In this document: piece after piece, positions 29,503 to 46,459 of the stretch
Layout of the letters: each line of letters opens with the position of its first letter
Numbering within the stretch: position 1 is the first letter of the stretch
Assembly (NCBI GenBank): GCA_039744215.1
Contig: JBCJTT010000007.1
Coordinates: forward strand, 5,598 to 69,597
DNA from: Solirubrobacteraceae bacterium
Lineage (GTDB): Bacteria > Actinomycetota > Thermoleophilia > Solirubrobacterales > Solirubrobacteraceae
DNA: 64,000 bases
Direction of reading: 5' to 3'
The notes under the pieces: model-generated
The model's database searches: none
The model's input: the letters and a program-made list of their open reading frames with translations, nothing else
What the model was told of the DNA's origin: nothing
Translations under genes and position numbers: made by a program

Positions 29503-29528
29503 CACCGCAGCGTAGAAGATGACCCGCC

Positions 29529-30404: not shown

Positions 30405-30410
30405 GGGCCG

Positions 30411-30438: not shown

Positions 30439-30465
30439 GTCGTTTGAGACAGTGGGTCTGTGAAT

Positions 30466-30678: not shown

Positions 30679-31103
30679 TGCATGACTCCCGGGACGTACG
30701 ACTAAATGTACGTATATTGAGGAGGGCAACTCGTCGCGCGGTACACACGTCGCACAGACTGCAGGCAAGGCTGCCGTCACCCGGCGATCCGCACGTCCAA
30801 GGAGTCACGTCGCCGCCGCGGAGGATGGAGCCAGACTCCATTTGGTCGAACTCCTGGAAGAGCCGACGAGCTTGGACGCCACGGTGGTCGGACCAACAAC
30901 GGCCCGACCCCACAGCGCCTCGTACACCACTTCTAACGACATGACCTTGGGACGCGAATGGGACGCGGTGAGTCGCAGTCAGGCGGTCGGCGTCACGGCG
31001 CGACCAGCGTCCGCTACTTGCCGTGTTTGAGGGTGCGCCACTTGCTGCTCTTCCCAGCCCGGTCCCTGATGGGAGCGAGCGGCCAGCGACCAATCCCGCG
31101 ATG

Positions 31104-32303: not shown

Positions 32304-32427
32304 CGCCCAACCATACCTCGCGTGCCCAACGATGCCCGTTCTCGCTCCGGACGAGAGGTATCGCGCGGTGCCCGCCCCCGGGGTCGGCGGCGCTTCAGCC
32401 TCAGCATTTGCAGGCCGTTCTTTTGAA

Positions 32428-32469
32428 TGGAGCCAGACGGGATCAAACCGTCGACCTCCTGCTTGCAAA
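32428..32469 (-). pseudogene. tRNA-Ala(TGC) 3' fragment (anticodon loop to discriminator)
   Basis: Reverse complement is TTTGCAAGCAGGAGGTCGACGGTTTGATCCCGTCTGGCTCCA. This aligns with the 3' 42 nt of bacterial tRNA-Ala(UGC) (compare E. coli TTTGCACGCAGGAGGTCTGCGGTTCGATCCCGCATAGCTCCA). No matching 5' half is present. Confidence 0.55.
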
Positions 32470-32590
32470 CGAACCCAGACGGGTCACAAGAAGACACCGA
32501 TGGTCAGGGACGCCGGGTCCTTCCTCCCGGTCGGGACGGGGTGAAGCGGTGCTCCTGCTTGTCGTCTCTATGAAAGAGGGATGGCGGGGC

Positions 32591-32621
32591 GTGGGCGAGG
32601 CGCCGGTGCGCCGTCGCCCAC
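32591..32621 (-). terminator. hairpin downstream of the cupin gene (possible intrinsic terminator)
   Basis: An 8-bp stem, GTGGGCGA (32591-32598) pairing with TCGCCCAC (32614-32621), lies 10 nt after the stop. The downstream T-tract is weak. Confidence 0.3.
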
Positions 32622-32630
32622 AACGGTGGT

Positions 32631-33077
32631 TCAGGCAGCAGCTGGTGCGCCCTGGTTGAGGACGGTCGCGCCCATCGGCTGCATGGGTTCGGTGAAGGTC
32701 GAGATGATCTCAGACTCGGAGAAGAAGCCCACGCACTTGAAGGTCTCGTCGCCCATGTTGCGTAGAGCGTGGGGGACCATTGCGGGGATCACGGCGAGTT
32801 CTCCAGCCGTCAGGTGCCCGCGCTCGTCGCCTACTTCTGCCTCTGCCTCGCCGGCGACGACGTAGAGGATCTCCTCGGCGCTGTCGGTGTGGATGGGGAG
32901 CTGGTCGCCCGGCTCGATTTCGAAGTAGACGACGGCGCTGTCGTCGGAGCCGGCCCACTTGTTGATCGGGAACGTGCAGCGCACGCGCTGGTGCTCGGGG
33001 TCGCTGTCGAGCCAGACCTGAGTCAGCTCGAGTTCGGTGGTGTTGGCAGTTAGCATGTCTGGAGTCCCGTCTTTCAT
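32631..33077 (-). CDS. cupin-domain protein
   Basis: 148 aa. Cupin motifs in GDQLPIHTDSAEEILYVVAGEAE and AVIPAMVPHALRN. Confidence 0.75.
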   Translation of the reverse strand: MKDGTPDMLTANTTELELTQVWLDSDPEHQRVRCTFPINKWAGSDDSAVVYFEIEPGDQLPIHTDSAEEILYVVAGEAEAEVGDERGHLTAGELAVIPAMVPHALRNMGDETFKCVGFFSESEIISTFTEPMQPMGATVLNQGAPAAA

Positions 33078-33104
33078 AGAACAGCTTTGGTCGATGGATT
33101 ACTG

Positions 33105-33133
33105 ACCCTACCTCGGGCTGTATCGCCTGTCAA
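33105..33133 (-). promoter_or_regulatory. sigma-70/SigA-type promoter for the cupin gene, overlapped by a palindrome
   Basis: Minus strand reads TTGACA (33133-33128), a 17-nt spacer, then TAGGGT (33110-33105). The palindrome GTCAA-GT-TTGAC at 33129-33140 covers the -35. Confidence 0.5.
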
Positions 33134-33154
33134 GTTTGACTGCACGGTTATGAG

Positions 33155-33967
33155 CTACGAAAGGCCGCTTGAGCGGACACCGAGTGGTTCGAGCCAGGCT
33201 GCGGGCAGCGTCGGCGGGACCCTTCCCGGGTAGTCCGGGACGACCCGCAGGGCGAGCTCGCCGGCCGGGCGGTGCTCGATTGCCGGCCGTAGGTCGTCGA
33301 ACGCCATCGCCAGTCGCAGGCTTGGGGCGATCTGGAAGTCGGCGACGTTGAGATTCTCGCCGCCGAGCGTGCCGTCGGCGATCCAGTCGTCAATCCGCTG
33401 CAGCATTCCGGGCAGGGCCGCAATGTCGCGTTGCACGTCGGCGTCGCTGACATCGTGCGAGCGGGCGTCGAGCGCGATGAACGGGCCGGCCATCCTGACT
33501 CCCAGGCCGTGCGGGAGGCCGATCTTCGCGCCCTCCAGGAAGCTGCGCAGCGGCGCCACGTCCTGCTTGAGCATCCACAGCAGGATCTGACGCACGCAGT
33601 GCTGCAGATCCTCGTCGCCGAACCGCTCGGCCACCTCCACCTGTGCACGGAGGCCGGGATCAGCGGGGAAGATGGCCGGCTCGGGCCGCAGGCGCTCGAG
33701 CTCACGGGCGATCTCCGTCGAGCCCTGGACCCGTCGCCCGTCGATCTTGATCGCCGGCACCGTCACGCGCGGGAAGCGCAGCACCTTGAGCACGCCCCAC
33801 GAGACCACGGGAAGCAGGTCGGTGCGTCTATATGGAATGCCCTTGAGTTCGAGCATCCGCTGCACGGCGACCCCGGGGTGCGAGCCGGGGATCGTGAACA
33901 GCCGCACTTTGAACGGGCCGGCCGGCTCCAGGCGGGTTTCGGCAGGCGTTGTCGCTGTGGTCGTCAT
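33155..33967 (-). CDS. glutathione S-transferase-like protein (thioredoxin-fold N-domain)
   Basis: About 270 aa. The GST_N-like segment VRLFTIPGSHPGVAVQRMLELKGIPY...VPAIKIDGRRVQGSTEIAREL is followed by a helical C-domain. Start is the ATG at 33967 or the GTG at 33991. Confidence 0.65.
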   Translation of the reverse strand: MTTTATTPAETRLEPAGPFKVRLFTIPGSHPGVAVQRMLELKGIPYRRTDLLPVVSWGVLKVLRFPRVTVPAIKIDGRRVQGSTEIARELERLRPEPAIFPADPGLRAQVEVAERFGDEDLQHCVRQILLWMLKQDVAPLRSFLEGAKIGLPHGLGVRMAGPFIALDARSHDVSDADVQRDIAALPGMLQRIDDWIADGTLGGENLNVADFQIAPSLRLAMAFDDLRPAIEHRPAGELALRVVPDYPGRVPPTLPAAWLEPLGVRSSGLS

Positions 33968-34012
33968 GTCAGCTGCCTTTTCATTGAACACACTTGGTTG
34001 ATGTATTTGGCG

Positions 34013-34041
34013 ACGCTACGCCCGACCAAGCCATCTGTCAA
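34013..34041 (-). promoter_or_regulatory. sigma-70/SigA-type promoter for the GST-like gene, in the divergent region shared with tetR
   Basis: Minus strand reads TTGACA (34041-34036), a 17-nt spacer, then TAGCGT (34018-34013). Confidence 0.45.
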
Positions 34042-34057
34042 GCTTCAGTGCACAGCC

Positions 34058-34687
34058 ATGGTTCGTGAAACTCCCACCAAGCGCAAGTACGAGCTCAAGA
34101 AGCGCGCCGACGAGATGGCCGCGACGCGCCGGCGGATCACCGAGGCCGCCGTCGAGCTGCACGGCACGATCGGCCCGGCCCGCACCACGATCACCGCGGT
34201 CGCCGAGCGCGCCGGCGTCCAACGTCACACCGTCTACCGCCACTTCCCCACCGAAGCAGAGCTCTACGGAGCGTGCTCAGCCCACTTCTTCGCCGCCAAC
34301 CCGCTGCCCGACCCCCAGGCCTGGGCCGCGATCAGCGACCCCCACCAGCGGCTCGCGCGAGCACTGGACGAGCTCTACGCCTACTACGAGCGTGCCGAGC
34401 AGATGTTCTCCAACGTCTTCCGTGACGCCGAACTCGTCGACGCCCTGGCCCCCACCCTCGCGCCGCTCCAGAGCTACATGGCCACCACGGCCAAGATCCT
34501 GGCAACCGGCCGACCCGTCCGCGGGCGACGCCGACAGGTCCTCGCCGCCGCGCTCAACCACGCCACCGACTTCCGAACCTGGCGCTCGCTCACCGCCGAC
34601 GGCCAGATCACGCGCACCGACGCCGTACAACTCGCCAGCGGACTCGTCGACACCGCCGCAACCCCCCAGCGACGCACCACCGCATAG
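34058..34687 (+). CDS. TetR/AcrR-family transcriptional regulator
   Basis: Track ORF trimmed to the ATG at 34058. HTH is RRRITEAAVELHGTIGPARTTITAVAERAGVQRHTVYRHF. Confidence 0.8.
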   Translation: MVRETPTKRKYELKKRADEMAATRRRITEAAVELHGTIGPARTTITAVAERAGVQRHTVYRHFPTEAELYGACSAHFFAANPLPDPQAWAAISDPHQRLARALDELYAYYERAEQMFSNVFRDAELVDALAPTLAPLQSYMATTAKILATGRPVRGRRRQVLAAALNHATDFRTWRSLTADGQITRTDAVQLASGLVDTAATPQRRTTA

Positions 34688-34902
34688 CTCCACCCGGCAA
34701 GACGGTGGCCCACCGCCTGCGCGCCGCTCCGCATCCCCGCAGACCAGTTCTCCCTGCGGCGTGCCCGTAGACGCGGCTCGGACCACGATTCCCGCGGGCC
34801 CACCGGTGCCAGCGATGGCCGCGCGCAGGCAGGCGAACGTTGCGCTGTGTCCGCCGTCGACAAACTCGTCGGCGACGTGGAGCGTGGCCTGGGATTGCGG
34901 TG

Positions 34903-35934
34903 TTACGCGGCGAGCGAGTCGCGGACCGTCGTCCGCTTGCCCCACTGGTCGGACTGGGCGAACGCCATCAGCTGGGGGAAGCAGGCGCGCACGTCGGCCG
35001 GTTCGATCCCGGCCGGGCCGAGGACGGCGGCGGCCCTGCGGCGGTCGAAACGGGTGCGCACGTCGAAGTAGGGGGCGAAGACGCCTTCGGTCTCCGCGTC
35101 GGGCCGCAGCTCGATCGGCGCCCGGTCGAAGCTTGCGGCCGCGAGCCTTACCAAATCATGCACAGGGAAGGCGCGGGCCCCTGCCGTGAGGTTGTAGGTG
35201 CCGGTCGCGCCGGGCGCGGTCAGCAGATGCAGTAGCGCGTCGGCCACGTAGTCGCCCGTGACGATGTCGAGCAGGCCGTCCGGATCGGCGGGGGCGCTCG
35301 TCAGTAGGCCGCGGGAGTAGGCGCGCATCGGTGGGTAGAGGACGTTGAAACTGCACGTCCAGCCGGTCGGCGCTTCCCCGACCACGATGCTGGGCCGCGC
35401 GACGACGAGCGGCAGATCGTCGCGCTCGCCGAGCATCACCTCGGCCTCGAGCTTCGTCTGCTCGTAGGTGTTACGGAACGCCTGGCCCAGGTCGAGATCG
35501 CCCTCGGTGAAGGTGCCGTCGTGGCGGCCCGACACGTAGGCGGTGCTGACGTGCACGAACCGCTCTAGGCGCGGCGCATCCTCCGCGAGGAGGTTGGCGA
35601 GAAACCGCGTGCCGCCGACGTTGGTCGCCCGCGCGGTGTCCAGGGGAAGGTCGAAGGCCACCGCGGCGGCGCAGTGCAACACGAGCGTGACCTCGCCCAA
35701 CCCCGGGATCTGCGGGTCCTGCGTGAGGTCGGCCGCGCAGGCGCGGATACGTGCCCGCCGGGCAGGGCCGGGGACGGCCCACAACCGGTCGAGGACCGCG
35801 TCCATCCGCGCGGTCGCGGCGATATCGTCGTCGGCCCGGACGGGGCAGAGGATCGGCTCGCCCTCGGGGTCGGCGAGGAGCCGAGCGAGCACGAGCGTCC
35901 CGAGATACCCGGTGGCGCCGGTGAGCAGGATCAT
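34903..35934 (-). CDS. thioester reductase-family SDR (fatty acyl-ACP/CoA reductase-like, NAD_binding_4 type)
   Basis: Trimmed to the ATG at 35934, which makes an ATGA overlap with the fabI stop. Rossmann motif LLTGATGYLG, catalytic YEQTK, and VHVSTAYV typical of terminal R domains and FARs. Confidence 0.75.
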   Translation of the reverse strand: MILLTGATGYLGTLVLARLLADPEGEPILCPVRADDDIAATARMDAVLDRLWAVPGPARRARIRACAADLTQDPQIPGLGEVTLVLHCAAAVAFDLPLDTARATNVGGTRFLANLLAEDAPRLERFVHVSTAYVSGRHDGTFTEGDLDLGQAFRNTYEQTKLEAEVMLGERDDLPLVVARPSIVVGEAPTGWTCSFNVLYPPMRAYSRGLLTSAPADPDGLLDIVTGDYVADALLHLLTAPGATGTYNLTAGARAFPVHDLVRLAAASFDRAPIELRPDAETEGVFAPYFDVRTRFDRRRAAAVLGPAGIEPADVRACFPQLMAFAQSDQWGKRTTVRDSLAA

Positions 35935-36710
35935 CGGCCGGTCGCGCCGATCGCATGGAAACCGCCGTCCACGTGCAGGATCTCGCCGCTGATCGCCCGC
36001 GCACGGTCCGACAGCAGCCAGCACACGGCGTCCGCGACCGGTTCGGCGTCCGCAGTGTCCCAGCCCAGCGGCGCCTGCTCCTGCCAGATGTCGGCCAGGC
36101 GGTCGAAGCCAGGGATCCCGCTTGCGGCGATCGTGGCCAGCGGCCCGGCGCTGACGAGGTTCACGCGGATACCGTCGGGGCCGAGGTCACGGGCCAGATA
36201 CCGCGACACCGATTCCAGCGCCGCCTTGGCCACGCCCATCCAGTCGTAGACCGGCCAGGCCACCGTGGCGTCGAAGTCGAGCCCAACGACGCTGGGAGTC
36301 TCGCCGGCGGCGAGCAGCGGATGCAGCGCGCGCGCCAGCGCCTTGAAGCTGAACGCGCTCGTCGTGAACGCGGTCTGCGCGCTTTCGGCCGGCGTGTCGA
36401 GAAACGCACCGCCGAGCGCGTCGGCCGGCGCGAACGCGATCGCGTGCAGTACGCCGTCGACGGCCCCCCAGCGGGAGTGCAGCTCGACCGCAAGGGCGTC
36501 GAGATCCTCGGGGCGGTTGACGTCGAGTTCCAGAACGTCGCACGGCTCCGGCAGTTTGCGGGCGGCGCGCTCGGTCAGCCGGCGGCCGCGGCCGAAGCCG
36601 GTGAGGACAACCTCGGCGCCCTCCTCCTGCGCACGGCGGGCGACGTGCCAGGCGATTGAATCCTTGGTGACCACGCCGGTCAGAAGCAGTCGCCGGCCCT
36701 CGACACTCAT
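35931..36710 (-). CDS. fabI: enoyl-ACP reductase (FabI/InhA type)
   Basis: Trimmed to the ATG at 36710. N-terminus is RLLLTGVVTKDSIAWHVA. Catalytic context is YDWMGVAKAALES. 259 aa. Confidence 0.85.
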   Translation of the reverse strand: MSVEGRRLLLTGVVTKDSIAWHVARRAQEEGAEVVLTGFGRGRRLTERAARKLPEPCDVLELDVNRPEDLDALAVELHSRWGAVDGVLHAIAFAPADALGGAFLDTPAESAQTAFTTSAFSFKALARALHPLLAAGETPSVVGLDFDATVAWPVYDWMGVAKAALESVSRYLARDLGPDGIRVNLVSAGPLATIAASGIPGFDRLADIWQEQAPLGWDTADAEPVADAVCWLLSDRARAISGEILHVDGGFHAIGATGR

Positions 36711-37225
36711 GTTAGGTCCCAGACATTCTCGCCGTAGGGCACGCTGGCGCCGTTCGAGGGCGCGGCTGCCGACTTGGACGGTCCCCCGACATGGCCGGTG
36801 CGCCACAGCACTTCGACCCGCGCCGTGCAGGCCTTCAGCCCGTCCTGGCGCACGACGTCGATAGCCAAGGTAACGAGGCCCGCCTCGTCGCTCACGGGCT
36901 TGACCTCGCGGATGCGCCCGTCCACGTGGATCGTGTCGCCCAGCCGCACGGGACGTTTGAACGTCACATCGCGCACGCGGCGCAGCGCCATCACGCGCTC
37001 GGGGTCGAACGGCACGAGGCCGACGGCGAACGAGAGCACCAGCATGCCGTGGGCGATGCGCTCGCCGAACGGCCCGGCCGCCGACCATTCGGCGTCGGCG
37101 TGCTGCGGGTGCCAGTCGCCGGTCAGCGCGGCGAAGCCCACGACGTCGGCCTCGGTCACTGTGCGCCCGCGGCTGGTGAAGCGCGTGCCGGTTTCGAGCG
37201 TCTCGAAGGGGTCAGACCAGTTCAC
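36707..37225 (-). CDS. MaoC-like (R)-specific hydratase/dehydratase (single hotdog)
   Basis: 172 aa. Hydratase motif GDWHPQHADAEW...IAHG. GTGA and ATGA overlaps with its neighbours. Confidence 0.8.
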   Translation of the reverse strand: MNWSDPFETLETGTRFTSRGRTVTEADVVGFAALTGDWHPQHADAEWSAAGPFGERIAHGMLVLSFAVGLVPFDPERVMALRRVRDVTFKRPVRLGDTIHVDGRIREVKPVSDEAGLVTLAIDVVRQDGLKACTARVEVLWRTGHVGGPSKSAAAPSNGASVPYGENVWDLT

Positions 37226-38673
37226 AGTGGGATGTTCCTTGTCGGCTGGGGTGGGCGGTGCACATCGGCGAGTGTCTGCAACGAGGAGGCGATTCGGTTG
37301 CGCGTCTCGTCTGGCGTGACGATCTCGTCGATGTGGCCGAGCGCCGCGACGGCCTTCACGTCCAGGTGCTCGGCCGCGTAGCGCCCCGCCAGCCGGTCGC
37401 GGGCACGGTCGGAATCGGGATCGGCAGCAATCTCGCGGTGGTTGACGATGCCGACCGCCTGCGGTGCGCCCATCACGCCGATCTGGGCCTGCGGCCAGGC
37501 GAACACGAGATCGGCGCCCAAGCCCTTGCTGTTCATCGCGATGAACGCGCCGCCGAAGGCCTTACGGGTGACGACGGTGATCTTCGGCACCGTGGCGGCG
37601 GCGAAGGCGTGCACGAGCTTGGCGCCGTGGCGGATCACCCCCGCCTGCTCCTGAGCGCTGCCGGGCAGGAATCCGGGAGTGTCGACCAGGACGATCAGCG
37701 GCAGTCCGAACGAGTCGCAGGTGCGCACGAAGCGCGCCGCCTTGGATGCGGACTCGGCGTCGAGCACTCCGCCGAGGTAACGCGGCTGGTTGGCCACGAT
37801 CCCGACCGCGCGGCCGTCGAGACGCGCGAAGCCGCACACCATGTTGCGCGCCCACTTTTCGCCGATCTCGATCATCCGGCCACCGTCGACGAGCAGGCGT
37901 ATCAGGTGGCGCACGTCGTACACGCGGCGATGCTCGTCGGGGACGACAGCGCTCGCCGAGCCCGCGAGCGGCGGGACGGTCGGCCAGCGCTGCGCCGTGG
38001 CGCCGGTGTGCTGGGGCAGATGGTCGAGGATGTCGCGGGCCAGCAGTGCCCCGTCGACCTCGGACTCCACGACGGCGTGGCAGACGCCGTTGCGCTGATG
38101 GACCCGCGGACCACCGAGCTCGTCGCCGGTGACCTGCTCGCCGGTCACCTCCTCCACGATGCCCGGCCCGGTGAGGAACATGCTGGCCGAACGCGTCATG
38201 ATCACCAAGTCGGTGAGCGCGGGTGCGTACGAACCCCCACCGGCGCTGGCGCCACAGACGACGCTGATCTGCGGCACCTGACCCGACAGCATGGTGTGGG
38301 CACGGAAGATGCGGCCATAACCCGACAGCGCGCCGGTGCCTTCCTGCATGCGCGCTCCGGCCGACTCGATGAAGCCCACGACGGGCATGCGACCGCGCCC
38401 CGCGAGCTCCAGCAGTCGCACCACGGTGTCGGCGTGGGCCTCGCCCAGCGACCCGCCGGCGAAGCTCGCGTCCTGCGCGAAGCAGGCCACGGCGCGGTCG
38501 TCGACGGTGCCGGTGGCGGCGAGAACGCCGTCGCCGTCACGGGCCTTCTCGCCCATGCGCGAGGAACGCACACCGGTGCGCAGCAGTTGAAGGGACCCCG
38601 GGTCGCAGAGGACCTCCAGGCGCTCGAGCGGCGACAGGCGCTCATCGGGGCGGGGGACCAGCGCGAGGCTCAT
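37222..38673 (-). CDS. acyl-CoA carboxylase carboxyltransferase beta subunit (AccD6-like, short form)
   Basis: 483 aa with two crotonase-like carboxyl_trans halves (GGSLGEAHA, ESAGARMQEG, ANQPRYLGG, DTPGFLPG). No biotin carboxylase or BCCP gene in the cluster. Confidence 0.85.
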   Translation of the reverse strand: MSLALVPRPDERLSPLERLEVLCDPGSLQLLRTGVRSSRMGEKARDGDGVLAATGTVDDRAVACFAQDASFAGGSLGEAHADTVVRLLELAGRGRMPVVGFIESAGARMQEGTGALSGYGRIFRAHTMLSGQVPQISVVCGASAGGGSYAPALTDLVIMTRSASMFLTGPGIVEEVTGEQVTGDELGGPRVHQRNGVCHAVVESEVDGALLARDILDHLPQHTGATAQRWPTVPPLAGSASAVVPDEHRRVYDVRHLIRLLVDGGRMIEIGEKWARNMVCGFARLDGRAVGIVANQPRYLGGVLDAESASKAARFVRTCDSFGLPLIVLVDTPGFLPGSAQEQAGVIRHGAKLVHAFAAATVPKITVVTRKAFGGAFIAMNSKGLGADLVFAWPQAQIGVMGAPQAVGIVNHREIAADPDSDRARDRLAGRYAAEHLDVKAVAALGHIDEIVTPDETRNRIASSLQTLADVHRPPQPTRNIPL

Positions 38674-39875
38674 ACGCCTTCCAGTACCAGTACGGCGTTG
38701 TGCCCGCCGAAGCCGAAGGAACTGGACAACGCGACGGCGGGGAGATCGTCCTCGCGGGCGGCGAGCGGTCGTGCCCGGCCCGGGACGTAATCCAGGTCCA
38801 GGCCCTCGTCGGGCTGCTCGTAGCCGAGCGTGGGCGGAGCGACGCGGTCGCGTAGCGCCAACAGCGTGGCGATCGCCTCGACGGCGCCGGCCGCACCGAG
38901 CAGGTGCCCGATCGATGACTTCAGAGACGACGTCGGGATGCGGTGGGCGTCCGCCCCCAGCGCCGTCTTCAGCGCCATCGTCTCGGCGCGATCGTTCAGC
39001 TGGGTGCTCGTCCCGTGGGCGTTCACGTAGTCGATCGCCGCGGGGGTCAGCCCGGCGTCGTGGAGCGCGGCGGTGATCGCGCGGGCGGCGCCCGCGCCGT
39101 CGGGGTGAGGGGCGACCATGTGGTGTGCGTCGCAGGTGGCGCCGTAGCCACGGACGGTCCCGAGGATCCGTGCACCGCGGGCCCGGGCCGCCGCGCCGTC
39201 CTCCAGGACGAGCACGCCCGCCCCCTCACCCATCACGAAGCCGTCCCGTCGCGCGTCGAACGGGCGGGAGATGCCGCTCGATGACGTGGCGTCAAGCGCA
39301 CCGAAGGAGGCGCGCGACAACGGGGTCAGCGCTGCTTCGGCGCCGCCGGTGACCACGGCGTCGGCGTCGCCGCAGGCGATCATCCGGGCGGCGACGCCGA
39401 TCGCGTGGGTGCCCGACGCGCAGGCCGAGACCACGCCGTAGCAGGGACCCTGCAGGCCATGGCGCATCGCCAACGCGGCGGCGGCGGCGTTGCCCATCAT
39501 CAACGGAACCGAGCGGGGTGAGACCCCGCTGGCGCCGCGCCCCAGCAGGTCGGTCTGCCCGGCCTCGATCGTGGCCAGACCCCCGACCCCCGTCCCGATC
39601 ACGCAGCCGATCCGCGTGGGATCCACCGGCGGCCCGTCGCCCCAGCCGGCGTCGATCAGCGCTTCCTCACCGGCGGCGATGGCCAGCTGGGTGAAGCGGT
39701 CCGCTCGCCGGGCCTCCTTGCGCGACATTGTGTCGAGCGGGTCGAAGTCCGCGCACGGAGCCTCGCCGCCCACAATCGCGCAGACGCCCGACGTCCAGCG
39801 CTCGTGCAGCGTGCGGGCGCCAACCCCCAGCGGGGTGATCGCTCCGACTCCGGTGACGACGACATCGGCGCGCAT
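38670..39875 (-). CDS. fabF: beta-ketoacyl-ACP synthase II
   Basis: Start set to the ATG at 39875 (MRADVVVTGVGAITPLG), 4 nt after the ACP stop. Active-site contexts SACASGTHAIG, NAHGTSTQ and GHLLGAAG. Confidence 0.9.
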   Translation of the reverse strand: MRADVVVTGVGAITPLGVGARTLHERWTSGVCAIVGGEAPCADFDPLDTMSRKEARRADRFTQLAIAAGEEALIDAGWGDGPPVDPTRIGCVIGTGVGGLATIEAGQTDLLGRGASGVSPRSVPLMMGNAAAAALAMRHGLQGPCYGVVSACASGTHAIGVAARMIACGDADAVVTGGAEAALTPLSRASFGALDATSSSGISRPFDARRDGFVMGEGAGVLVLEDGAAARARGARILGTVRGYGATCDAHHMVAPHPDGAGAARAITAALHDAGLTPAAIDYVNAHGTSTQLNDRAETMALKTALGADAHRIPTSSLKSSIGHLLGAAGAVEAIATLLALRDRVAPPTLGYEQPDEGLDLDYVPGRARPLAAREDDLPAVALSSSFGFGGHNAVLVLEGV

Positions 39876-39879
39876 GGCG

Positions 39880-40122
39880 TCAGGCGCGCTGCGCAATCAG
39901 GTCGATCGCCTCGCCGACGGTCCCGATTCCCCGGATATCGTCGCTCTTTAGCTCGACTCCGAACTCCTCCTCGACGATCTGGGCCAGCTCAGCCAGGTCG
40001 AGCGAATCGATGTCCAGCGCCTCGAACGAGGCGTCCCGGCTGATGTCGCCTGGCTCGGCGCCGAAATCCGCCAGCGCCTTCGTGACGACGTCTTCGATCT
40101 TCGTGTTGTCAGTGGTGCCCAT
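39880..40122 (-). CDS. acyl carrier protein
   Basis: 80 aa. Phosphopantetheine site is LDIDSLDLAEL. AAGGAG lies 8 nt upstream of the ATG. Confidence 0.9.
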   Translation of the reverse strand: MGTTDNTKIEDVVTKALADFGAEPGDISRDASFEALDIDSLDLAELAQIVEEEFGVELKSDDIRGIGTVGEAIDLIAQRA

Positions 40123-40141
40123 GCGTGCTCCTTTGGTTGGT

Positions 40142-40879
40142 TTAGGCGGTCAGGCCGCCGTCGATGAACAGAGTGGTGGCGGTCACGTAGGCCGCCGCGT
40201 CGGAGGCGAGGAAAGCGACGCCCGCGGCGACGTCGTCCGGGCTGCCGGCGCGTCGTGCGGGGATCGCCTTCAACATTTCCTCATCGATCACATCGGTGGT
40301 CATGTCGGTCGCGATGAAGCCGGGAGCGACCGCGTTGACGGTGACGCCGCGGCGCGCGACCTCGACGCCAGCCGTGCGCGTGAAGCCGACGAGGCCGGCC
40401 TTGGACGCCGCGTAGTTGGCCTGGCCGGCGTTGGCGCGCGGCCCGACGACCGAGGCGATGTTGATCACGCGGCCGTAGCGGGCACGGACCATGCCTTTCA
40501 GGGCACCGCGCGTAAGACGGAACGCCGCCGTGAGGTTGGTGGCGAGGACGAGATCCCAGGCCTCGTCGCTGAGCGACATGGCCAGGTCGTCGGCGCGCAC
40601 ACCCGCGTTGTTGACCAGTCCGAGCACCGGTCCGTCGAGCGCCTCCTGGGCGCGGGTGAACACCGCGGCGGTGGCTGCCGCGTCGGTCACGTCGAGGTCG
40701 AGCGCGTGGGCGCGACCGCCGCCGGCGTGGATGACGTCGACTGTCCGGGCGGCGCCCTCGGGGTCGGAGCGGTAGGTCACCGCGACGGCCCAGTCGTCAG
40801 CGGCGAGGGCTCGGGCGCTCGCGGCGCCGATGCCTCCGGAGGCGCCGGTGACGAGGGCGACGGCGCCATCAGGACGCAT
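40142..40879 (-). CDS. fabG: 3-oxoacyl-ACP reductase
   Basis: Trimmed to the ATG at 40879. Motifs ALVTGASGGIG, NNAG and YAASKAG. Confidence 0.85.
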   Translation of the reverse strand: MRPDGAVALVTGASGGIGAASARALAADDWAVAVTYRSDPEGAARTVDVIHAGGGRAHALDLDVTDAAATAAVFTRAQEALDGPVLGLVNNAGVRADDLAMSLSDEAWDLVLATNLTAAFRLTRGALKGMVRARYGRVINIASVVGPRANAGQANYAASKAGLVGFTRTAGVEVARRGVTVNAVAPGFIATDMTTDVIDEEMLKAIPARRAGSPDDVAAGVAFLASDAAAYVTATTLFIDGGLTA

Positions 40880-41882
40880 CCGTATCACCCCAGGTGACGA
40901 CGGTCGCGGCCCAGGTAAACCCGGCGCCGAACGCGGCCAACAGGACGCGGTGGCCGGGCGCGAGCAGGCCGCGATCACGGGCCGTGCCCAGCGCCAGCGG
41001 GATTGACGCGGCCGACGTGTTGCCGTGCTCATCGATCGTGGCCAGGACCCGCTCGGGGGACAGGTCGAGCCGCTCGACCAGCGACTGCAGGATCCGGGCG
41101 TTGGCCTGGTGGAAGACGAGGAGGTCGAGGTCGTGGATGTCGATCCCGGCCTGCGCGCACGCGCCGAGCGCGGCTTCGCTAATTCGCGCGACGGCGTGGT
41201 GGAACACCTCGGGGCCGTCCATCCGGATCAGGCCGTCCCCGCGTTCGGCGTGCAGGAGCGGGCCGAGGCTGCCATCGGCGCCGAGCAACGTCGGGCCCAC
41301 ACCCGTGGCGGCACCGCTGCGGGCGCCGACGAGTACCGCGCCCGCGCCGTCACCGAAGATCGCCGCCGTCTTGCGGTCGGCGTAGTCGATGTGGCGGGCG
41401 AGCATCTCGGCGCCCACGACGAGCACGCGTTCGGCACGGCCCGATTCGAGCATCGCGGCCGCCAGCGCGAGGGCGGAGACCCACCCGCTGCAGGCGGCGC
41501 CAACGTCGAGCGCCCCTGCGTTCACGGCGCCCAACTCGTTGGCCAGCAGTGGCGCGGTGTGAGGGATGATCTCGTCTGACGAGCAGGTGGCGACGAGGAT
41601 CAGGTCAAGGTCGGCGGCGTCGACGCCCGCGTCGGCGAGCGCCTCACGGGCGGCGACGGCCGCTAGGTCGTGCAGATGATCACCGGGTGCTGAGCGGCGA
41701 CGCTCGCGGATACCCGTGCGCTTGATGATCCACGCGGGATCGACACCGGTGATCGCGGCGATCTCCTCGTTGGTGACCACCTCGACCGGTAGGGCCGTGC
41801 CCAAGCCGAGGATGACGGCGCCGGTAGTGGCGCGGAAGGCGGGGTCGGCGACCGAAACAGCCGTGCGTTCAGACGGGATCAT
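40869..41882 (-). CDS. fabH: beta-ketoacyl-ACP synthase III
   Basis: 337 aa. Cys-His-Asn contexts GAACSGW, FHQAN and HGNTSAAS. Confidence 0.85.
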   Translation of the reverse strand: MIPSERTAVSVADPAFRATTGAVILGLGTALPVEVVTNEEIAAITGVDPAWIIKRTGIRERRRSAPGDHLHDLAAVAAREALADAGVDAADLDLILVATCSSDEIIPHTAPLLANELGAVNAGALDVGAACSGWVSALALAAAMLESGRAERVLVVGAEMLARHIDYADRKTAAIFGDGAGAVLVGARSGAATGVGPTLLGADGSLGPLLHAERGDGLIRMDGPEVFHHAVARISEAALGACAQAGIDIHDLDLLVFHQANARILQSLVERLDLSPERVLATIDEHGNTSAASIPLALGTARDRGLLAPGHRVLLAAFGAGFTWAATVVTWGDTDAS

Positions 41883-42708
41883 GAGCGAGCTCCAGCTGCG
41901 GTGGGTTGCGATCGACCAGCTTGGCTAGGACGTCGCCCGGCCCCAAATCGATGAAGTTCTGGCACCCGTGACGGTACAACGCCGCCATGACCTCACGCCA
42001 GCGCACCGGCGCGGTGATCGCGGCCGACAGCTCGCCGACCGGGCCGGTGAACGGCTGCGCCGTCATCCCGCTGAACACCAGCCCGTCGGGTTCCCGCCAG
42101 TCGACCGATGCGGCGGCCTGCGAAAACGCGGTTCGCGCCGGCGCCATCGCGGGACAGTGGAAGGCGCCGGTGACGTTCAGCTCGATCGCGCGCAGCCCGC
42201 GATCGCGGGCGTCGCCGCGTGCGCTCTGCAGCGCGTCGCGGGGTCCCGACAGGACCACCTCCCCGGGCGCATTGTCGTTGGCCAGCACGAGCCCGTGGTC
42301 GTCTGCCAGCGACTGTGCCTCAGCGACGGAGCCCTTCAGCACGGCGAGCATCCCCTGCCCCGGGTCGCGCTCGGCGGCGCGGGCCATGGCGTCGCCGCGG
42401 ACGACCGCGAGATGCACGGCGTCGCGCTCGGACAGAGCGCCCGCCGCGGCCAGCGCCGTCAGCTCCCCCAGCGAATGCCCGGCGTAGGCGCGGTCCTCGG
42501 CCGGCACGGTGCCGCGCCACGCGGCGAGTCCGGCGAGCAGGATCGCCGGCTGGGCGAAGCGGGTGCTCTCATCGCACCGCGTGAACGGCTCCTCACCGAG
42601 CAGGTCGATGCACAGGTCGAGCAGATCGGGGGCCTGTACCCGGACGAGCGTGAGAGCCTCGGGGTCCTGGGTCCCCTGGCCCGGGAAGAGGTAGGCGGTT
42701 GTGGCCAC
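41869..42708 (-). CDS. fabD: malonyl-CoA:ACP transacylase
   Basis: Start set to the GTG at 42708 (VATTAYLFPGQGTQ). Nucleophile elbow is GHSLGE. Confidence 0.85.
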   Translation of the reverse strand: MATTAYLFPGQGTQDPEALTLVRVQAPDLLDLCIDLLGEEPFTRCDESTRFAQPAILLAGLAAWRGTVPAEDRAYAGHSLGELTALAAAGALSERDAVHLAVVRGDAMARAAERDPGQGMLAVLKGSVAEAQSLADDHGLVLANDNAPGEVVLSGPRDALQSARGDARDRGLRAIELNVTGAFHCPAMAPARTAFSQAAASVDWREPDGLVFSGMTAQPFTGPVGELSAAITAPVRWREVMAALYRHGCQNFIDLGPGDVLAKLVDRNPPQLELAHDPV

Positions 42709-42769
42709 GCAACCACCATAAACCAGTGTGGATGTGCGCACTCGGGCGGCGGCGTCCAGAACCGTCCGG

Positions 42770-42798
42770 TCGGGGGGTCGCACCCGCCGATCGGGGGG
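42770..42798. promoter_or_regulatory. two G6-tract boxes in the response-regulator/fabD intergenic region (candidate operator)
   Basis: TCGGGGGGTCGC at 42770-42781 and CCGATCGGGGGG at 42787-42798. Each is an exact 12-mer match to part of the palindromic site at 45007-45025. Confidence 0.4.
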
Positions 42799-42813
42799 CC
42801 GACGTTCTCAGCC

Positions 42814-43437
42814 TCAGCGCAGCAGACCGATCTGTTGTGCTCGGCGCACCGCTTCGGCCCGGTTGCGCACATCGAGCTTGCGGTACAGCAGGCTCGTGTG
42901 CTCCTTGACCGTATGCGGGGAGAGGTGCAGAGCCTCGGCGATCTCGCGGTTGGTGGCGCCAGTGCCGATGTGTTCCAGAACCTCGCGCTCACGGGCCGTC
43001 AGTTCGGGGCCACGGGGCTCCTCGGCGGGCGGGAACACCGTCTTGCCCATCCCCACCATGCGCACTGCGGCGGCAACGTCGGCGGCCGGCCACTCCTTCA
43101 GGACGAACCCGGCCGCACCGGCGGCGCGCGCGGCGGCCGGTGCGATGCGGCCGGCGCCCGAGATCAGCAGGACGCGCGGCGGGATCAGCAGCCCACGCAA
43201 GCGTTCGGTCAGCTCGGCGCCCGACTCGGGCCCGATGAACAGGTCGACGAGGGCGACGTGGGGTTCGTAGCGGGTCGCGAGAGCCACCGCCTGGTCGCCG
43301 TTGCGTGCGCTCAGCGTCCGCTCCACCCACGGCTGCTGGCCCAGCATCAGCCGGAAGCCCCAGTGCACGACGTCGTGGTCGTCGACGACCAGCACGCGCA
43401 GCCGCCGGTCCGGATTGCCCTCCACCTCGTCAGACAT
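42814..43437 (-). CDS. NarL/LuxR-family response regulator
   Basis: 207 aa. REC domain (VLVVDDH, ALVDLFIG) and LuxR HTH (LTAREREVLEHIGTGATNREIAEALHLSPHTVKEH). Confidence 0.85.
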   Translation of the reverse strand: MSDEVEGNPDRRLRVLVVDDHDVVHWGFRLMLGQQPWVERTLSARNGDQAVALATRYEPHVALVDLFIGPESGAELTERLRGLLIPPRVLLISGAGRIAPAAARAAGAAGFVLKEWPAADVAAAVRMVGMGKTVFPPAEEPRGPELTAREREVLEHIGTGATNREIAEALHLSPHTVKEHTSLLYRKLDVRNRAEAVRRAQQIGLLR

Positions 43438-44548
43438 CGCGGGGGATCACCAGACGCACCTGCCATTCGCCGGGCGCCGGGGAGCCGAACTCCAGCAGCG
43501 CGCCCTGGTGCAGGGCTTCGACGGCGGCGAGCCGGAGCCCGACCCCCGAGGCGCCCCGCCCGGCCCGGGCACCGTCATTGCGCACCTCCAGGACGAACGC
43601 CTCCTGCTCGTCGCGGATACGCACCCGGACGGCAGTCGGCTCGGCGTGTTTGTGGGCGTTGCGCACAGCCTCGGCCAGCACCGACTGCACCAGCGGTTCC
43701 AGCTCCGGCGGCACGGAGGTGGGGTCGCCCTCCTCCAGCACGACGCCCAGGTCGGCGTGCCCGGCGGCCAGGCGCGTCAGCTCGTCGGCGAGCGTTACCT
43801 GCGTGGGCCGCGGAGCCCGCCCCAGCGGCTTGGAGAGGGCCTCTCGCAGGTCGTGCATCGCCTGCTGCAACTCGTCAGCGGCGCGTACGCGGGACTCCGC
43901 GTCCAACGGCCCCTCCCCCGACAGCGCGAGGGAGACGCCGAACAGGCGCTGCACGACCCCGTCGTGGAGCTCGCGCGCCATGTCGATGCGCTCCTCCAGT
44001 TCCCTCGCGCGCTGGGATTGCGCCGTCGCCGAGCGGGCGGTGGCCGCAAGGGCCGCGGTCTTGCCCAAGGTCCAGAGCGTGTGGCGCTCGGGCTCAGACA
44101 GGCCGGGGCTGCCGGCCGGTCGGTCGGAGATGATCACGCCGACCCACTGGCCGCCCGCGGCCATCGGGGTGACGATGAGGCCGACGTCGGCGACGAGGCC
44201 GACGTAGTCGGGCGGCACGATGCCCGCCGTCTCGGTCTCCACCACGCGGTCCTCCTCGAGTGCCGTACGGGCCGCCTCTAGGGATTCCACCGTGAAGAAT
44301 CCGCCGTCGAAGATCTCCGCGTCGACACCGTGCGCCCCGGCCGCCCGGACCTGGCGGCGCGCCGCGTCGTAGCGGAAGATCACGGCGCGCTCCGCGCTCG
44401 TCAGGTCACAGATCACGCGGCACAGCTGGCTGTAGAACAGGCTGCCGTCCGCGTCGTCGGGCGCGTGCCCGTCCGGCACGGTGGACAGCACCTCCACGAA
44501 CGCATCGAGGGCCGCGATGTGCGCCCCAGGCCCACCAACTGCGCTCAC
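43430..44548 (-). CDS. GAF-domain sensor histidine kinase (HisKA_3 type)
   Basis: Start set to the GTG at 44548, a GTGA overlap with the upstream small ORF. GAF-like N-domain, H-box RELHDGVVQRL and ATPase N-box EAVRNAHKHA. Overlaps the RR start by 8 nt. Confidence 0.8.
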   Translation of the reverse strand: MSAVGGPGAHIAALDAFVEVLSTVPDGHAPDDADGSLFYSQLCRVICDLTSAERAVIFRYDAARRQVRAAGAHGVDAEIFDGGFFTVESLEAARTALEEDRVVETETAGIVPPDYVGLVADVGLIVTPMAAGGQWVGVIISDRPAGSPGLSEPERHTLWTLGKTAALAATARSATAQSQRARELEERIDMARELHDGVVQRLFGVSLALSGEGPLDAESRVRAADELQQAMHDLREALSKPLGRAPRPTQVTLADELTRLAAGHADLGVVLEEGDPTSVPPELEPLVQSVLAEAVRNAHKHAEPTAVRVRIRDEQEAFVLEVRNDGARAGRGASGVGLRLAAVEALHQGALLEFGSPAPGEWQVRLVIPRDV

Positions 44549-44796
44549 GACGGGCCAGCCCCCGCGAGGGTCAGGCGCAGGTACTGGAGTGGCGTGGCCT
44601 CGACGCGGTGCTGGTGGTCGCACGCCGAGCAGTGGCAGTCGACGTGGCCGTCGGTGGCGTCGCCCGCCAGCCGGGCCTCCGACGCCGCATGGAGGCACTG
44701 CGGGCAGGCCATCGAGGCGGCGACGAGGGCCTGAGGGTCATCCGGGGCGAACAGGGCGACGGCGGGCATGGCACCAACGCTAGCGCGGACGCTCAT
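44545..44796 (-). CDS. small Cys-rich (zinc-ribbon-like) protein
   Basis: 83 aa from the ATG at 44796, or 74 aa from the ATG at 44769. Motif is CPQC...CHCSAC. Its stop overlaps the kinase start. No Shine-Dalgarno seen. Confidence 0.4.
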   Translation of the reverse strand: MSVRASVGAMPAVALFAPDDPQALVAASMACPQCLHAASEARLAGDATDGHVDCHCSACDHQHRVEATPLQYLRLTLAGAGPS

Positions 44797-45006
44797 CGGC
44801 GCCCAACGGCGGGCACCTCCACCGGACGAACGGGGGGGGTCGGACGGGCCGCGTCCGTATCACGGCCGTCCTTGATGCGTCTGCGTGCAGGCATCAGCCC
44901 GTTCAAAACGACGCCTGCGTGCTCGGTCGTAAGGGAGAGCTCACGAATCAAGCTGTCGTCATCGTTCCAGTGACGGCTCCCGTGCGCGGGCACGCACCCG
45001 AGAAAT

Positions 45007-45025
45007 CCCCCGATCGGGGGGTCGC
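45007..45025. promoter_or_regulatory. perfect 14-bp palindrome CCCCCGATCGGGGG plus TCGC extension, upstream of the regulator/fab array
   Basis: Palindrome at 45007-45020. The 12-mers CCGATCGGGGGG (45010-45021) and TCGGGGGGTCGC (45014-45025) recur at 42787-42798 and 42770-42781. A related GGGGGGGGTCG lies at 44832-44842. Confidence 0.4.
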
Positions 45026-45041
45026 GGCCACGCCGCGGGCC

Positions 45042-45090
45042 GCGGAATCATAATCCGCGTGTCGGGGTTTCGAGTCCCTCCTCCGGCATC
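45042..45090 (+). repeat. attR-like direct repeat (displaced tRNA-Met 3' half)
   Basis: Matches 27440-27488 at 48 of 49 positions. The single mismatch is T45068 versus G27466. No 5' tRNA half lies upstream. Confidence 0.85.
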
Positions 45091-45118
45091 GCCAAAGGCT
45101 CGCCCCAGCAGGTCCTTC

Positions 45119-46459
45119 TCAGCGAACACAGGCCTTACCTTTGCAGCTCTTCAGCTCCAGCGCCAGCTTGCGCAGCTCTGCCAACTTCGCCGGCGATGAG
45201 GCGGTCGGCTGCGCGACAAGGTTTGTCATCTCGAACGGGTCGGCAACGAGGTTGTACATCTCCTCCGGGCTGCCGGCACTGAAGTTTCCTTGTGAATCGA
45301 CGTAGCGGGCGTACATGAAATCCTTCGTACGGATGCCGTAGTACGGGATGTTCTCAGCGTTCGGGAAATTGCCCGGCTTGACGAACAGCTTGCGCGTCGC
45401 CTCAAGCGGGATCGCGCTGCGACCCTTGGCGGGGTTTTTCATCACCGGGAAGAGCGACATGCCGTCGCTTACGCGCCGCGCCTTCGCACCACTGGCAGCG
45501 ACAATCGTCGGCGTCAAGTCAACATTCGCAACCAGCGCATCGTTGGTCTTACGCTTCGGCACTCCCGGGCCGGCGATCATCAACGGCACATGCGTTGACT
45601 CCTTGTAGGGCAGGTACTTATTGCCGTTGATGTTGTGCTGGCCCATCAGCCAGCCGTTATCGGAAGTGAAGATGATCAGCGTGTTCTTCAGCTTGCCGTT
45701 CTTCTTCAGTTGGTCGATCATCATGGCGAACTGATCATCAAGCGCCATCGAAGCGCCTGCGCGGCCCTGGTAGTAGTGCGTCAGTTTGAGCATGCACTGA
45801 ACGCAGTCTGGGCTGAGCGTGTTCTTCATCAGTGGCGGCCGCAGCGCAGGGCGCAGGTCGCTGACATCCTGCTCGGCGAACGACGGGCCCTGCGGCAGGA
45901 CGAGGTTCTTGACGCGACTTGCGCACGGCTCCGGCAGACGCGGGTTCGGGCCGCCGATGTCGCGGCCTGGGCCTGCGTTGGCCTGCTCGGCGATGTCTTC
46001 GCGATGCTGGCTGGGCGGCGTGTAGTACTCAAACTACGGTTTCTTCGACTTCGAGAGCTTGGCGATCGTGTCGCGCCAGTCGGTCCATCCTTTCGGCACT
46101 TCCTTCGGGTCCAGTTCGCCGTAACCGTTGAGGTACTTGCCGCTGAGGCCGGTGTTGTAACCGGCCTTCTGCAGCTAGGCGGCCATGTTGTTGTCCTTCG
46201 TCTTCCAGCCGAGGAAATTGTCGGGTGAGAAGACGCTGGAGACACCGTGGTTGTGTGCCAACTGGCCGGTCAGAAAGGTGGTGCGGGCCGGGCAGCAGAG
46301 TGGATAGGTGACGAAGTTCTTCGTGAAACTGGTGCCCTGCGACTTGAAGAAGGCGGTCGTCTTCGGCATGAACATAAGGTTGTCGTAGCTCATGTCGTCA
46401 GCCATCACGACAAGCACGTTCGCGGCGGTACTGCGCTGATCGTGCTCGCAACGCAACAA
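45119..46459 (-). pseudogene. arylsulfatase-family gene with two in-frame TAG codons
   Basis: A single reading frame links ORFs 46175..46732 and 45119..45829. The FGly motif is CCPARTTFLTG. In-frame TAG codons lie at 46175-46177 (NMAA*LQKAGYNTG) and 46034-46036 (KSKKP*FEYYTPP). No signal peptide is evident. Confidence 0.75.

Follow-up and report, generated by a model that had tools for sequence, protein, structure and literature searches.

The type II (dissociated) fatty acid synthase (FAS-II) genes of Mycobacterium tuberculosis are arranged as fabD-acpM-kasA-kasB-accD6, mabA-inhA and hadABC, and the housekeeping operon of Streptomyces coelicolor is fabD-fabH-acpP-fabF, regulated by the TetR-type protein FasR; the order fabD-fabH-(fabG)-acp-fabF is that of the housekeeping operon in other Actinomycetota. 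Thermoleophilia are among the commonest soil actinobacteria, yet hardly any work has addressed their lipid biochemistry or gene regulation. We analyzed a 64-kb stretch of DNA from one of them, a Solirubrobacteraceae bacterium of the order Solirubrobacterales (GCA_039744215.1, contig JBCJTT010000007.1; the whole stretch is called the window below), in which twelve coupled genes at 34903-44796 encode a FAS-II together with a thioester reductase and a two-component system. As in M. tuberculosis, this is an actinobacterial dissociated FAS with FabD, an acyl carrier protein (ACP), a synthase of the ketoacyl-ACP synthase (KAS) II type and an acyl-CoA carboxylase carboxyltransferase (CT) encoded in an operon. 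Our reading, to which we give a probability of roughly 60%, is that it represents the FAS-II operon of the Solirubrobacterales (class Thermoleophilia), most probably the main source of membrane acyl chains, and that in this genome it lies on an island at a tRNA-Met gene.

Gene content and coupling of the operon

The original prediction for this stretch had described twelve same-strand open reading frames (ORFs) with coupled junctions, and all twelve indeed lie on the minus strand with every listed junction exact. From the 5' end they encode a small protein (44545-44796, 83 aa) whose translation carries a zinc-ribbon-like CxxC...CxCxxC motif; a sensor histidine kinase (43430-44548, 372 aa) with GAF (GAF_3), HisKA_3 and HATPase_c domains in Pfam; a response regulator (42814-43437, 207 aa) with a receiver domain (Response_reg) and a NarL-type GerE/LuxR helix-turn-helix (Pfam, NCBIfam); the malonyl-CoA:ACP transacylase FabD (41869-42708, 279 aa, GTG start); the KAS III enzyme FabH (40869-41882, 337 aa); the 3-oxoacyl-ACP reductase FabG (40142-40879, 245 aa); ACP (39880-40122, 80 aa); the KAS II enzyme FabF (38670-39875, 401 aa); the CT (beta) subunit (37222-38673, 483 aa); a MaoC-type (R)-specific hydratase/dehydratase with a single hotdog domain (36707-37225, 172 aa); a FabI/InhA-type enoyl-ACP reductase (35931-36710, 259 aa); and a stand-alone thioester reductase (34903-35934, 343 aa). 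The small ORF and the kinase gene overlap by 4 nt (GTGA), kinase and regulator by 8 nt, fabD and fabH by 14 nt, and fabH and fabG by 11 nt. In the distal half a 4-nt gap separates the ACP gene from fabF, and the remaining junctions are fabF/CT (ATGA), CT/MaoC (GTGA), MaoC/fabI (ATGA) and fabI/reductase (ATGA). Sizeable spacers are found in two places only, between the regulator gene and fabD (105 nt) and between fabG and the ACP gene (19 nt, with AAAGGAG ahead of the latter). A scan for consensus promoters and terminators was uninformative, with no promoter and terminators at or below chance.

All seven FAS activities (malonyl transacylase, KAS III, ketoreductase, ACP, KAS II, dehydratase and enoyl reductase) are present as discrete proteins with Pfam and NCBIfam matches, and FabI, FabH, FabF and FabG each exceed at least one curated NCBIfam cutoff. 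The catalytic motifs are intact in the translations, namely GHSLGE in FabD, Cys/His/Asn in FabH, Cys/His/His in FabF, DSL in ACP, D...H in MaoC and Ser-Tyr-Lys of the short-chain dehydrogenase/reductase (SDR) type. FabF matches the N- and C-terminal ketoacyl-synt domains, TIGR03150 (2e-136) and NF005589 (449 bits, cutoff 387), its best solved matches are the primary-metabolism FabFs 1j3n, 1e5m and 4ls5, and its Cys/His/His triad indicates that it is not a chain-length factor. FabD matches Acyl_transf_1 (4e-23) and has the Thermus FabD 2cuy as best solved match; its gene call in a conspecific genome, L001, has the identical length of 279 aa. For both FabF and FabD the nearest proteins are enzymes of primary metabolism from Thermus, Synechocystis, Bacillus and E. 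coli, and not polyketide synthase (PKS) components. FabH carries ACP_syn_III and ACP_syn_III_C and scores 347 bits with NF006829 (cutoff 249), FabG matches adh_short, TIGR01830 (2e-78) and, above its cutoff, NF009466, and FabI exceeds the cutoff of the equivalog model NF005908 (374 bits, cutoff 299) and also matches the InhA-type model NF040631 (277 bits). The ACP has a PP-binding domain and reaches 48 bits against the curated AcpP cutoff of 71. The dehydratase matches MaoC_dehydratas (6e-22) and is the product of the one hotdog gene of the operon; its score with the HadB model is 30 bits (cutoff 203), and there is no side-by-side pair of Had heterodimer genes. Judged on these matches and motifs, the operon qualifies as a type II FAS.

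The functions originally assigned to these genes (a full elongation cycle, a CT subunit, a reductase and a kinase/LuxR pair) are thus upheld by Pfam, NCBIfam and the catalytic motifs, with two corrections. The CT subunit, a possible AccD6 orthologue, had been called AccD6-like, which fits only its length (483 aa) and its operon context; in sequence it is nearer to PccB/AccD5: it matches Carboxyl_trans (1e-139), and among solved structures PccB/AccD5 (1e-119 to 1e-127) ahead of AccD6 (4fb8, 1e-108). To call the system self-contained was an overstatement, as neither the cluster nor the 64-kb window has a gene for a biotin carboxylase/biotin carboxyl carrier protein (alpha) partner of the CT subunit, a phosphopantetheinyl transferase, or an acyl-transfer or wax-synthase enzyme. 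The window outside the operon has no further fab gene either and is ordinary chromosome, with genes for the shikimate pathway, aminoacyl-tRNA synthetases, glutamine synthetase and an ammonium transporter.

That the terminal enzyme is a thioester reductase, as had been proposed, is confirmed both by its sequence, which matches NAD_binding_4 (PF07993, 3e-45) and carries the motifs TGATGYLG and YEQTK, and by its fold. Its AlphaFold model (pLDDT 88.5) finds as top matches the terminal reductase (R) domain of MxaA (TM 0.78, E 1e-20), the rice fatty acyl reductase (FAR) DPW and a PKS thioreductase domain; DPW (7eoz) is also the best solved match by sequence. Residues Y157 and K161 are invariant across 14 homologues. 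The protein stops at 343 aa and has no C-terminal FAR_C/Sterile domain in Pfam, and is thus not a two-domain alcohol-forming FAR; it lies within the NAD_binding_4/FAR/terminal-R-domain type (Pfam, NCBIfam, fold) and far under the curated NCBIfam cutoffs of every named family. No exact match to the window reductase was found by look-up. Its substrate would be acyl-ACP or acyl-CoA and its product a fatty aldehyde or alcohol. In the neighbourhoods of the relatives' loci no conserved gene 3' of the reductase points to the fate of this product. Wax esters are a plausible sink, because wax ester synthase/diacylglycerol acyltransferase is encoded by all seven of the seven Thermoleophilia isolates surveyed (bioRxiv 10.1101/2024.12.02.626346).

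Distribution of the operon and its candidate operator

Loci of the reductase family were searched in one genome per species. This led to at least 591 loci, of which the best 80 were analyzed as 21-kb segments, and synteny was counted in the 67 that have enough upstream DNA. The best 80 are almost all from Solirubrobacteraceae, Solirubrobacterales, Thermoleophilaceae or Conexibacteraceae, the cultured Solirubrobacter taibaiensis being among them. Of the 67 loci, 47 have at least seven of the eight FAS genes in colinear order ahead of the reductase; the two-component pair is found upstream in 51 of the 67 and on the downstream side in nine. Contigs of relatives carry this nine-gene core in unchanged order, often with kinase and regulator in front, at 53-64% reductase identity. 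The layout had been thought unusual; on the contrary, the order kinase-regulator-fabD-fabH-fabG-acp-fabF-CT-(MaoC)-fabI-reductase is the rule in the host's order. The MaoC gene was detected by tblastn in only 35 of 80 relatives. Median identities across the order are 68% for FabF, 70% for FabI and 67% for CT, within the range of HisS (66-82%); HisS of the window is 82% identical to proteins named Solirubrobacterales or Solirubrobacteraceae and 67% to that of Paraconexibacter algicola. Of the operon's proteins the reductase shows the lowest conservation (43-60% in the 80 loci of the genome scan, up to 64% in metagenome relatives), and despite this its gene always comes last, coupled to fabI. 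Some loci (L049, L065, L067, L068 and L078; L066, L069, L072, L076, L079 and L084) are variants in which the reductase is linked to the (small ORF-)kinase-regulator genes and the palindrome described below, and in which the FAS genes are absent from the locus or only fabH and CT are left. Since these variants keep the reductase and the two-component genes and not the FAS genes, the linkage of reductase and two-component system is tighter than that of FAS and two-component system.

In other genomes the operon usually lies in non-mobile, primary-metabolism surroundings, with genes for branched-chain 2-oxoacid dehydrogenase, acyl-CoA mutase or aconitase. In L024, L032, L036, L060, L064 and L074 the operon is followed (at about 11-15 kb) by a GntR gene and branched-chain 2-oxoacid dehydrogenase E1a/E1b/E2, and in L012, L019, L043 and others (also at about 11-15 kb) by a methylmalonyl/isobutyryl-CoA mutase-family gene, an FAD oxidase and a P450; both sets of neighbours may serve to supply primers for iso-fatty acids. 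A membrane fatty-acid desaturase gene is found within or adjoining the operon in four lineages, either between regulator and fabD or just after the reductase (L090/L006, 2304-3290; L007 and L008, about 2435-3270; L004/L005, 11080-11961, with a P450 next to it in L004), and there is none in the window. The dehydrogenase, mutase, aconitase and desaturase neighbours fit the major fatty acids reported for Solirubrobacter, iso-C16:0 and C18:1w9c (PMC10722151). In L004/L005, a freshwater metagenome-assembled genome, an NMO-family gene (528-1499; the family includes the enoyl-ACP reductase II FabK) lies directly upstream of the GAF kinase gene. In a scan of 60 other loci no credible tRNA gene adjoined the operon; the calls made were implausible ones within coding sequence and two tmRNAs, which lie 3' of the reductase gene at a distance of about 2-2.5 kb. 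A tRNA-Asp stands ahead of the operon in L006/L090. In the open-access full-text literature we found no description of the operon, of its operator, of fatty alcohols or ether lipids in Thermoleophilia, or of an island-borne complete FAS-II.

The regulator ranks with the best conserved proteins encoded here (median 69%, up to 81%), and relatives of the kinase are 48-66% identical. No segment of the kinase is more hydrophobic than those of the soluble FabH and FabF, and the kinase is apparently cytoplasmic by this measure. Its closest solved catalytic core is that of DesK; a multi-pass membrane sensor domain such as the DesK-type thermosensor was not found in it, a GAF domain being present instead, and this GAF domain shows no detectable similarity to the DosS/DosT GAF structures. 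It is this domain that would sense the signal. The small ORF has no Pfam or NCBIfam match. Homologues of it (39-46% identity) stand beside the kinase gene in only about 10 of 85 loci, and we rejected it as a universal kinase partner and regard it as an accessory part.

The spacer between regulator and fabD contains the palindrome CCCCCC-N4-GG(C)GGG (42784-42797); shortly downstream, on the coding strand, comes another C6 site, a weaker one. When no more than one mismatch is allowed, CCCCC-N4-GGGGG occurs in 47 of the 50 spacers that separate the regulator from the first gene (L003-L083), where about two are expected from the background rate. Its centre lies at a median of 69 nt upstream of fabD with a standard deviation of 7.9 nt, and its distance to the regulator stop codon ranges from 15 to 588 nt (standard deviation 138 nt). 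CCCCCC forms the left arm in 37 of 39 loci, with no compensating change where the right arm varies, and the flanks are A and TT. The palindrome is also found upstream of the reductase or two-component genes in variants without FAS genes, and upstream of fabD where the two-component genes sit elsewhere. A terminator or RNA hairpin was considered and rejected for this element: because the spacing is fixed to fabD and not to the regulator stop, and because arm changes are uncompensated, a protein operator fits better. A-CCCCCC-N4-GGGGGG-TT is thus a candidate operator, predicted to be bound by the LuxR-type regulator. A second copy in the window, CCCCCGATCGGGGGG (45007-45021), is situated some 210 nt ahead of the small ORF; it is deleted in the sister strains L094-L096 described below.

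The tRNA-Met island and the origin of this copy

The window holds one complete tRNA gene, a plus-strand tRNA-Met at 27413-27486, which is the proximal repeat and integration site (27413-27488) of an island. The 3' 52 nt of this tRNA-Met recur on the plus strand at 45039-45090 as a distal, att-type direct repeat (50 of 52 nt identical to 27437-27488; the copies are 17,602 nt apart), and one 50-nt stretch of the tRNA of L089 aligns to both copies. L089 (GCA_945889475.1) is the closest relative outside the species (HisS 81%), and in it the 17.55-kb segment between the repeats (27489-45038) is absent from the syntenic site: the genes for a sulfatase, tRNA-Met and an MFS protein are adjacent, forming an empty site. 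The flanking proteins of L089 are 64-86% identical to those of the window, most of them 75-86%, and its sulfatase is full-length. The tRNA-flanked island of the original prediction is therefore real, with a 52-nt tRNA-Met repeat that brackets about 17.6 kb and an empty site in L089. We had considered it an artefact, given that the operon is order-wide and its GC content lies on the trend of the order, and this view was overturned by the syntenic empty site and the tRNA repeat.

Besides the operon the island contains a 1.16-kb insertion sequence, ORFs of no known function and a 4.3-kb strain-specific segment. The insertion sequence (28039-29200, plus strand) is bounded by 27-nt inverted repeats that are 89% complementary; its DDE transposase gene (rve_3, 28109-29173) encodes 354 aa with rve_3 and helix-turn-helix domains, and it stands at the tRNA-proximal end, where an integrase would be expected. 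The strain-specific segment (30543-34882) lies directly after the reductase, begins 20 nt after its stop codon and is present in this strain only, the conspecific L001 and L002 having 188 bp in its place. Its genes are a weak cyclase-like gene (31104-32468), a cupin gene (32631-33077), a GST-like gene (33155-33991) and, within 33431-34687 on the plus strand, a gene for a TetR regulator. Next to the other end of the island the sulfatase gene (45119-45829) is a C-terminal fragment of 236 aa, compared with 540 aa in L089, and the 646 bp between it and the next gene, of the PG_binding family, are too short for the missing half; a gene for an FGE-type sulfatase-maturing enzyme persists 8 kb away (54213-55106).

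Three sister strains, L094, L095 and L096 (GCA_039744175.1, GCA_039744035.1 and GCA_039744055.1), have the same operon at 96.9% nucleotide identity and the same left neighbour. They are without 44850-46414 of the window, the sulfatase remnant and the distal repeat, and also without about 145 bp of the small ORF. After the reductase they continue with genes for HpaB, SDR, RidA, a hydrolase, DHDPS and an acyl-CoA dehydrogenase, and not with the insertion sequence and the tRNA end. The block shared among strains is 34886-44849, which is the operon itself, and the locus is a rearrangement hotspot around an intact operon block.

The operon region has 71.9% GC, against 64-66% in its flanks, and a GC content at third codon positions of 0.86-0.90 against about 0.78. 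Across the order, operon GC is about 72% whatever that of the flanks (66-77%), with a mean excess of 1.8 points and an excess above 3 points in 20 of 60 loci. Regression of operon on flank GC over 47 loci has a slope of 0.29 and predicts 71.1% for the flank GC of the window. Candidate causes of this buffering are the codon bias of a highly expressed operon and repeated transfer. Several observations speak for acquisition of the operon. In L090 (= L006), a locus of the same sample series as L089, flanks of 64.3% GC surround an operon of 67.3% in a non-mobile context and with a desaturase gene. The FabF of L090 is 87% and 81% identical to FabFs of higher-GC genomes and 74% to that of the species group of the window, and the window reductase, ACP, FabD and FabH are 60-66% identical to those of L090. 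Among the matches listed there is no FabF closer than 74% to that of L090 from the at least six assemblies of the species group, nor a second reductase cluster, and the operon appears to be the only copy of the species. It was probably acquired on the island from another, higher-GC member of the same order, a native copy having been lost or never present; the transfer would have run from the higher-GC lineage into this species. The L006 record (CAMCVN010000033.1, 99.97% identical to L090) is entered as 'MAG: Bifidobacterium breve', and this bin is probably mislabelled or contaminated.

Role of the operon and comparison with known systems

We propose that in the reaction sequence FabD would load malonate onto ACP, FabH would start chains from short acyl-CoA primers, probably branched ones, and FabF, FabG, the MaoC dehydratase and FabI would run the elongation cycle, with malonyl-CoA supplied by the CT subunit and a biotin-carrying partner encoded elsewhere. 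The reductase would divert part of the acyl-ACP/acyl-CoA pool to a fatty aldehyde or alcohol, for instance for wax esters, and the GAF kinase and NarL/LuxR regulator are predicted to control both the operon and themselves through the A-CCCCCC-N4-GGGGGG-TT operator. In this species the whole unit lies in a 17.6-kb degenerate island integrated at the 3' end of the tRNA-Met gene.

The locus had been put forward as a candidate novel lipid-production module. It is instead the normal operon of the host's order, probably its housekeeping FAS, with FabF and FabD of primary type, and it is neither a new kind of system nor, in all likelihood, a one-off lipid factory. Inheritance of a housekeeping FAS among relatives is largely what is seen at the level of the order, and not what is seen for the position of the operon in this species. 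The closest rival along the lines of the original proposal is that of an accessory, horizontally acquired second FAS-II, working beside an unseen housekeeping FAS and triggered by the two-component system to make a distinct reduced lipid (an aldehyde or alcohol, or an envelope or signalling lipid). The tRNA-Met island with its empty site in a relative speaks for it, as do an operon GC 6-7 points above the flanks compared with +3 in the low-GC relative L090, the dedicated two-component system and terminal reductase, the scores of ACP and FabD under the curated housekeeping cutoffs, and the occurrence in some genomes of the reductase and two-component unit without FAS genes. We nevertheless consider it unlikely, as the operon is colinear in most Solirubrobacterales examined, usually without signs of mobility and beside primary-metabolism genes, no other operon or reductase copy from the species group is among the matches listed, FabF and FabD resemble primary enzymes, and the window has no second fab gene.

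In another rival reading the operon would be native and vertically inherited, and the island either an old integration precisely lost in the L089 lineage or the outcome of an intragenomic relocation, with no foreign FAS involved. An operon GC of about 72% is what the order-wide trend predicts, the identities to the nearest operons (FabF 73-75%, CT 75-80%, regulator 80-81%) are not far under the 81% of HisS, repeat-flanked islands can excise cleanly, and every conspecific strain has the operon beside the same PG_binding gene. We hold this to be quite improbable given L090, whose low-GC genome has the operon at another place, with 67% GC and a desaturase gene, whose FabF is much closer to those of higher-GC genomes (81-87%) than to that of the window (74%), and to whose reductase, ACP, FabD and FabH the window proteins are just 60-66% identical. 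A specialised-metabolite cluster, resembling a highly reducing type II PKS and releasing a polyketide aldehyde or alcohol, is suggested by the top fold match of the reductase, the terminal R domain of a PKS-NRPS (NRPS, non-ribosomal peptide synthetase). It is hardly credible next to a single ketosynthase with intact Cys/His/His and no chain-length factor, a FabI-type enoyl reductase, a FabF nearest to primary FabFs, the lack of tailoring, export or resistance genes conserved around the operon, and its order-wide colinearity.

We thus favour a main FAS-II operon of the order that in this species resides on a tRNA-Met island, and several observations weigh against it. Because the comparison data are 21-kb loci, the primary role of the operon is argued from conservation and context, and the protein searches cover the best 120 of 8000 word-sharing candidates. 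ACP and FabD fall short of the curated AcpP and FabD cutoffs, and 13 loci keep the reductase, usually with the two-component system, and have at most two FAS genes upstream, so that the pair of reductase and two-component system may be a functional unit of its own. On the side of the island, no integrase or recombinase domain was found in any ORF between 27.5 and 34.9 kb even with E up to 1, the DDE transposase being the only such enzyme; the distal repeat is missing in L094-L096; and high GC is weak evidence of foreign origin because it is in part shared across the order. L090 and L089 are possibly of the same lineage, though a common source organism is not proven for them. On the side of the product, no wax synthase, aldehyde dehydrogenase or acyltransferase gene is conserved next to the reductase, and we know of no described rationale for a thioester reductase fixed in a housekeeping FAS operon. 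The chemotaxonomy paper on Solirubrobacter makes no mention of fatty alcohols or ether lipids (PMC10722151).

The novelty is limited yet genuine. It lies in a FAS-II operon that recurs across the order and includes a thioester reductase, in a two-component system with a conserved candidate operator, and in one species that has the unit on a tRNA-Met island. As a more speculative extension, which we put forward tentatively and with more doubt than confidence, bulk FAS, carrier-thioester reductase and GAF-kinase/LuxR switch might form a single C6-N4-G6 regulon in Solirubrobacterales, in which reduced acyl chains (fatty alcohols or aldehydes that go into wax esters or ether-type lipids) would make up a branch of core lipid metabolism that is both constitutive and regulated in this abundant soil clade; this presumably essential regulon could be moved by a tRNA-integrating element and take the place of the resident one (xenologous replacement of a whole FAS-II). 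If our reading is true, the order offers a nearly complete one-locus FAS-II that is useful for comparing the evolution of Streptomyces- and Mycobacterium-type FAS loci, fatty aldehydes or alcohols are predicted to be made straight from FAS under control shared with chain synthesis, and a candidate regulator-operator pair is at hand for cultured Solirubrobacter. The island copy would be a rare documented transfer of a complete core lipid-synthesis operon between genomes.

The island resembles other tRNA-integrated islands in its 3' tRNA repeat at both ends, the empty site in a relative, its strain-variable cargo and its internal insertion sequence. It differs from typical ones in having no tyrosine or serine integrase and in carrying as cargo a core-type biosynthetic operon of the order's own. 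The reductase shares the NAD_binding_4 Rossmann domain, TGxxGxxG and YxxxK with FARs such as plant DPW (7eoz), Marinobacter Maqu_2220/2507 and M. tuberculosis Fcr1/Fcr2, and its FRNTYEQTK resembles the FAR motif NTYxFTK; unlike these named FARs it has 343 aa, no FAR_C/Sterile domain and a gene within a FAS operon. PKS/NRPS R domains and carboxylic acid reductase release carrier-bound thioesters by NAD(P)H reduction. These enzymes (MxaA, 4u7w/4w4t) provide the best structural match, from which the window reductase differs in being free-standing and unfused to a carrier domain, at 21-24% identity to PKS/NRPS R domains.

The regulatory genes have their counterparts in DesK-DesR of B. subtilis and DosS/DosT-DosR of M. 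tuberculosis, which likewise pair a HisKA_3 kinase with a NarL/LuxR regulator and govern lipid genes via a palindromic box. DosS and DosT use GAF sensor domains. The window kinase differs from these systems in its single GAF domain and the lack of a membrane thermosensor, the candidate box is C6-N4-G6, unlike theirs in sequence, and the predicted target is a whole FAS operon; the desaturase inside the regulated unit in four lineages is a trait shared with DesKR. With M. tuberculosis FAS-II the operon further shares an InhA-type FabI and a MaoC/hotdog dehydratase in place of FabZ. It differs in uniting all parts in one operon and in including FabH, as for de novo synthesis and not for elongation of FAS-I products, and it has one KAS II and one hotdog gene, plus the reductase and the two-component system. 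Compared with S. coelicolor, fabG is inserted, accD-like, MaoC, fabI and reductase genes are appended, and control is assigned to a two-component system in place of FasR. The order fabD-fabH-(fabG)-acp-fabF is nevertheless common to both, which suggests that the two operons derive from a homologous core locus of the Actinomycetota.

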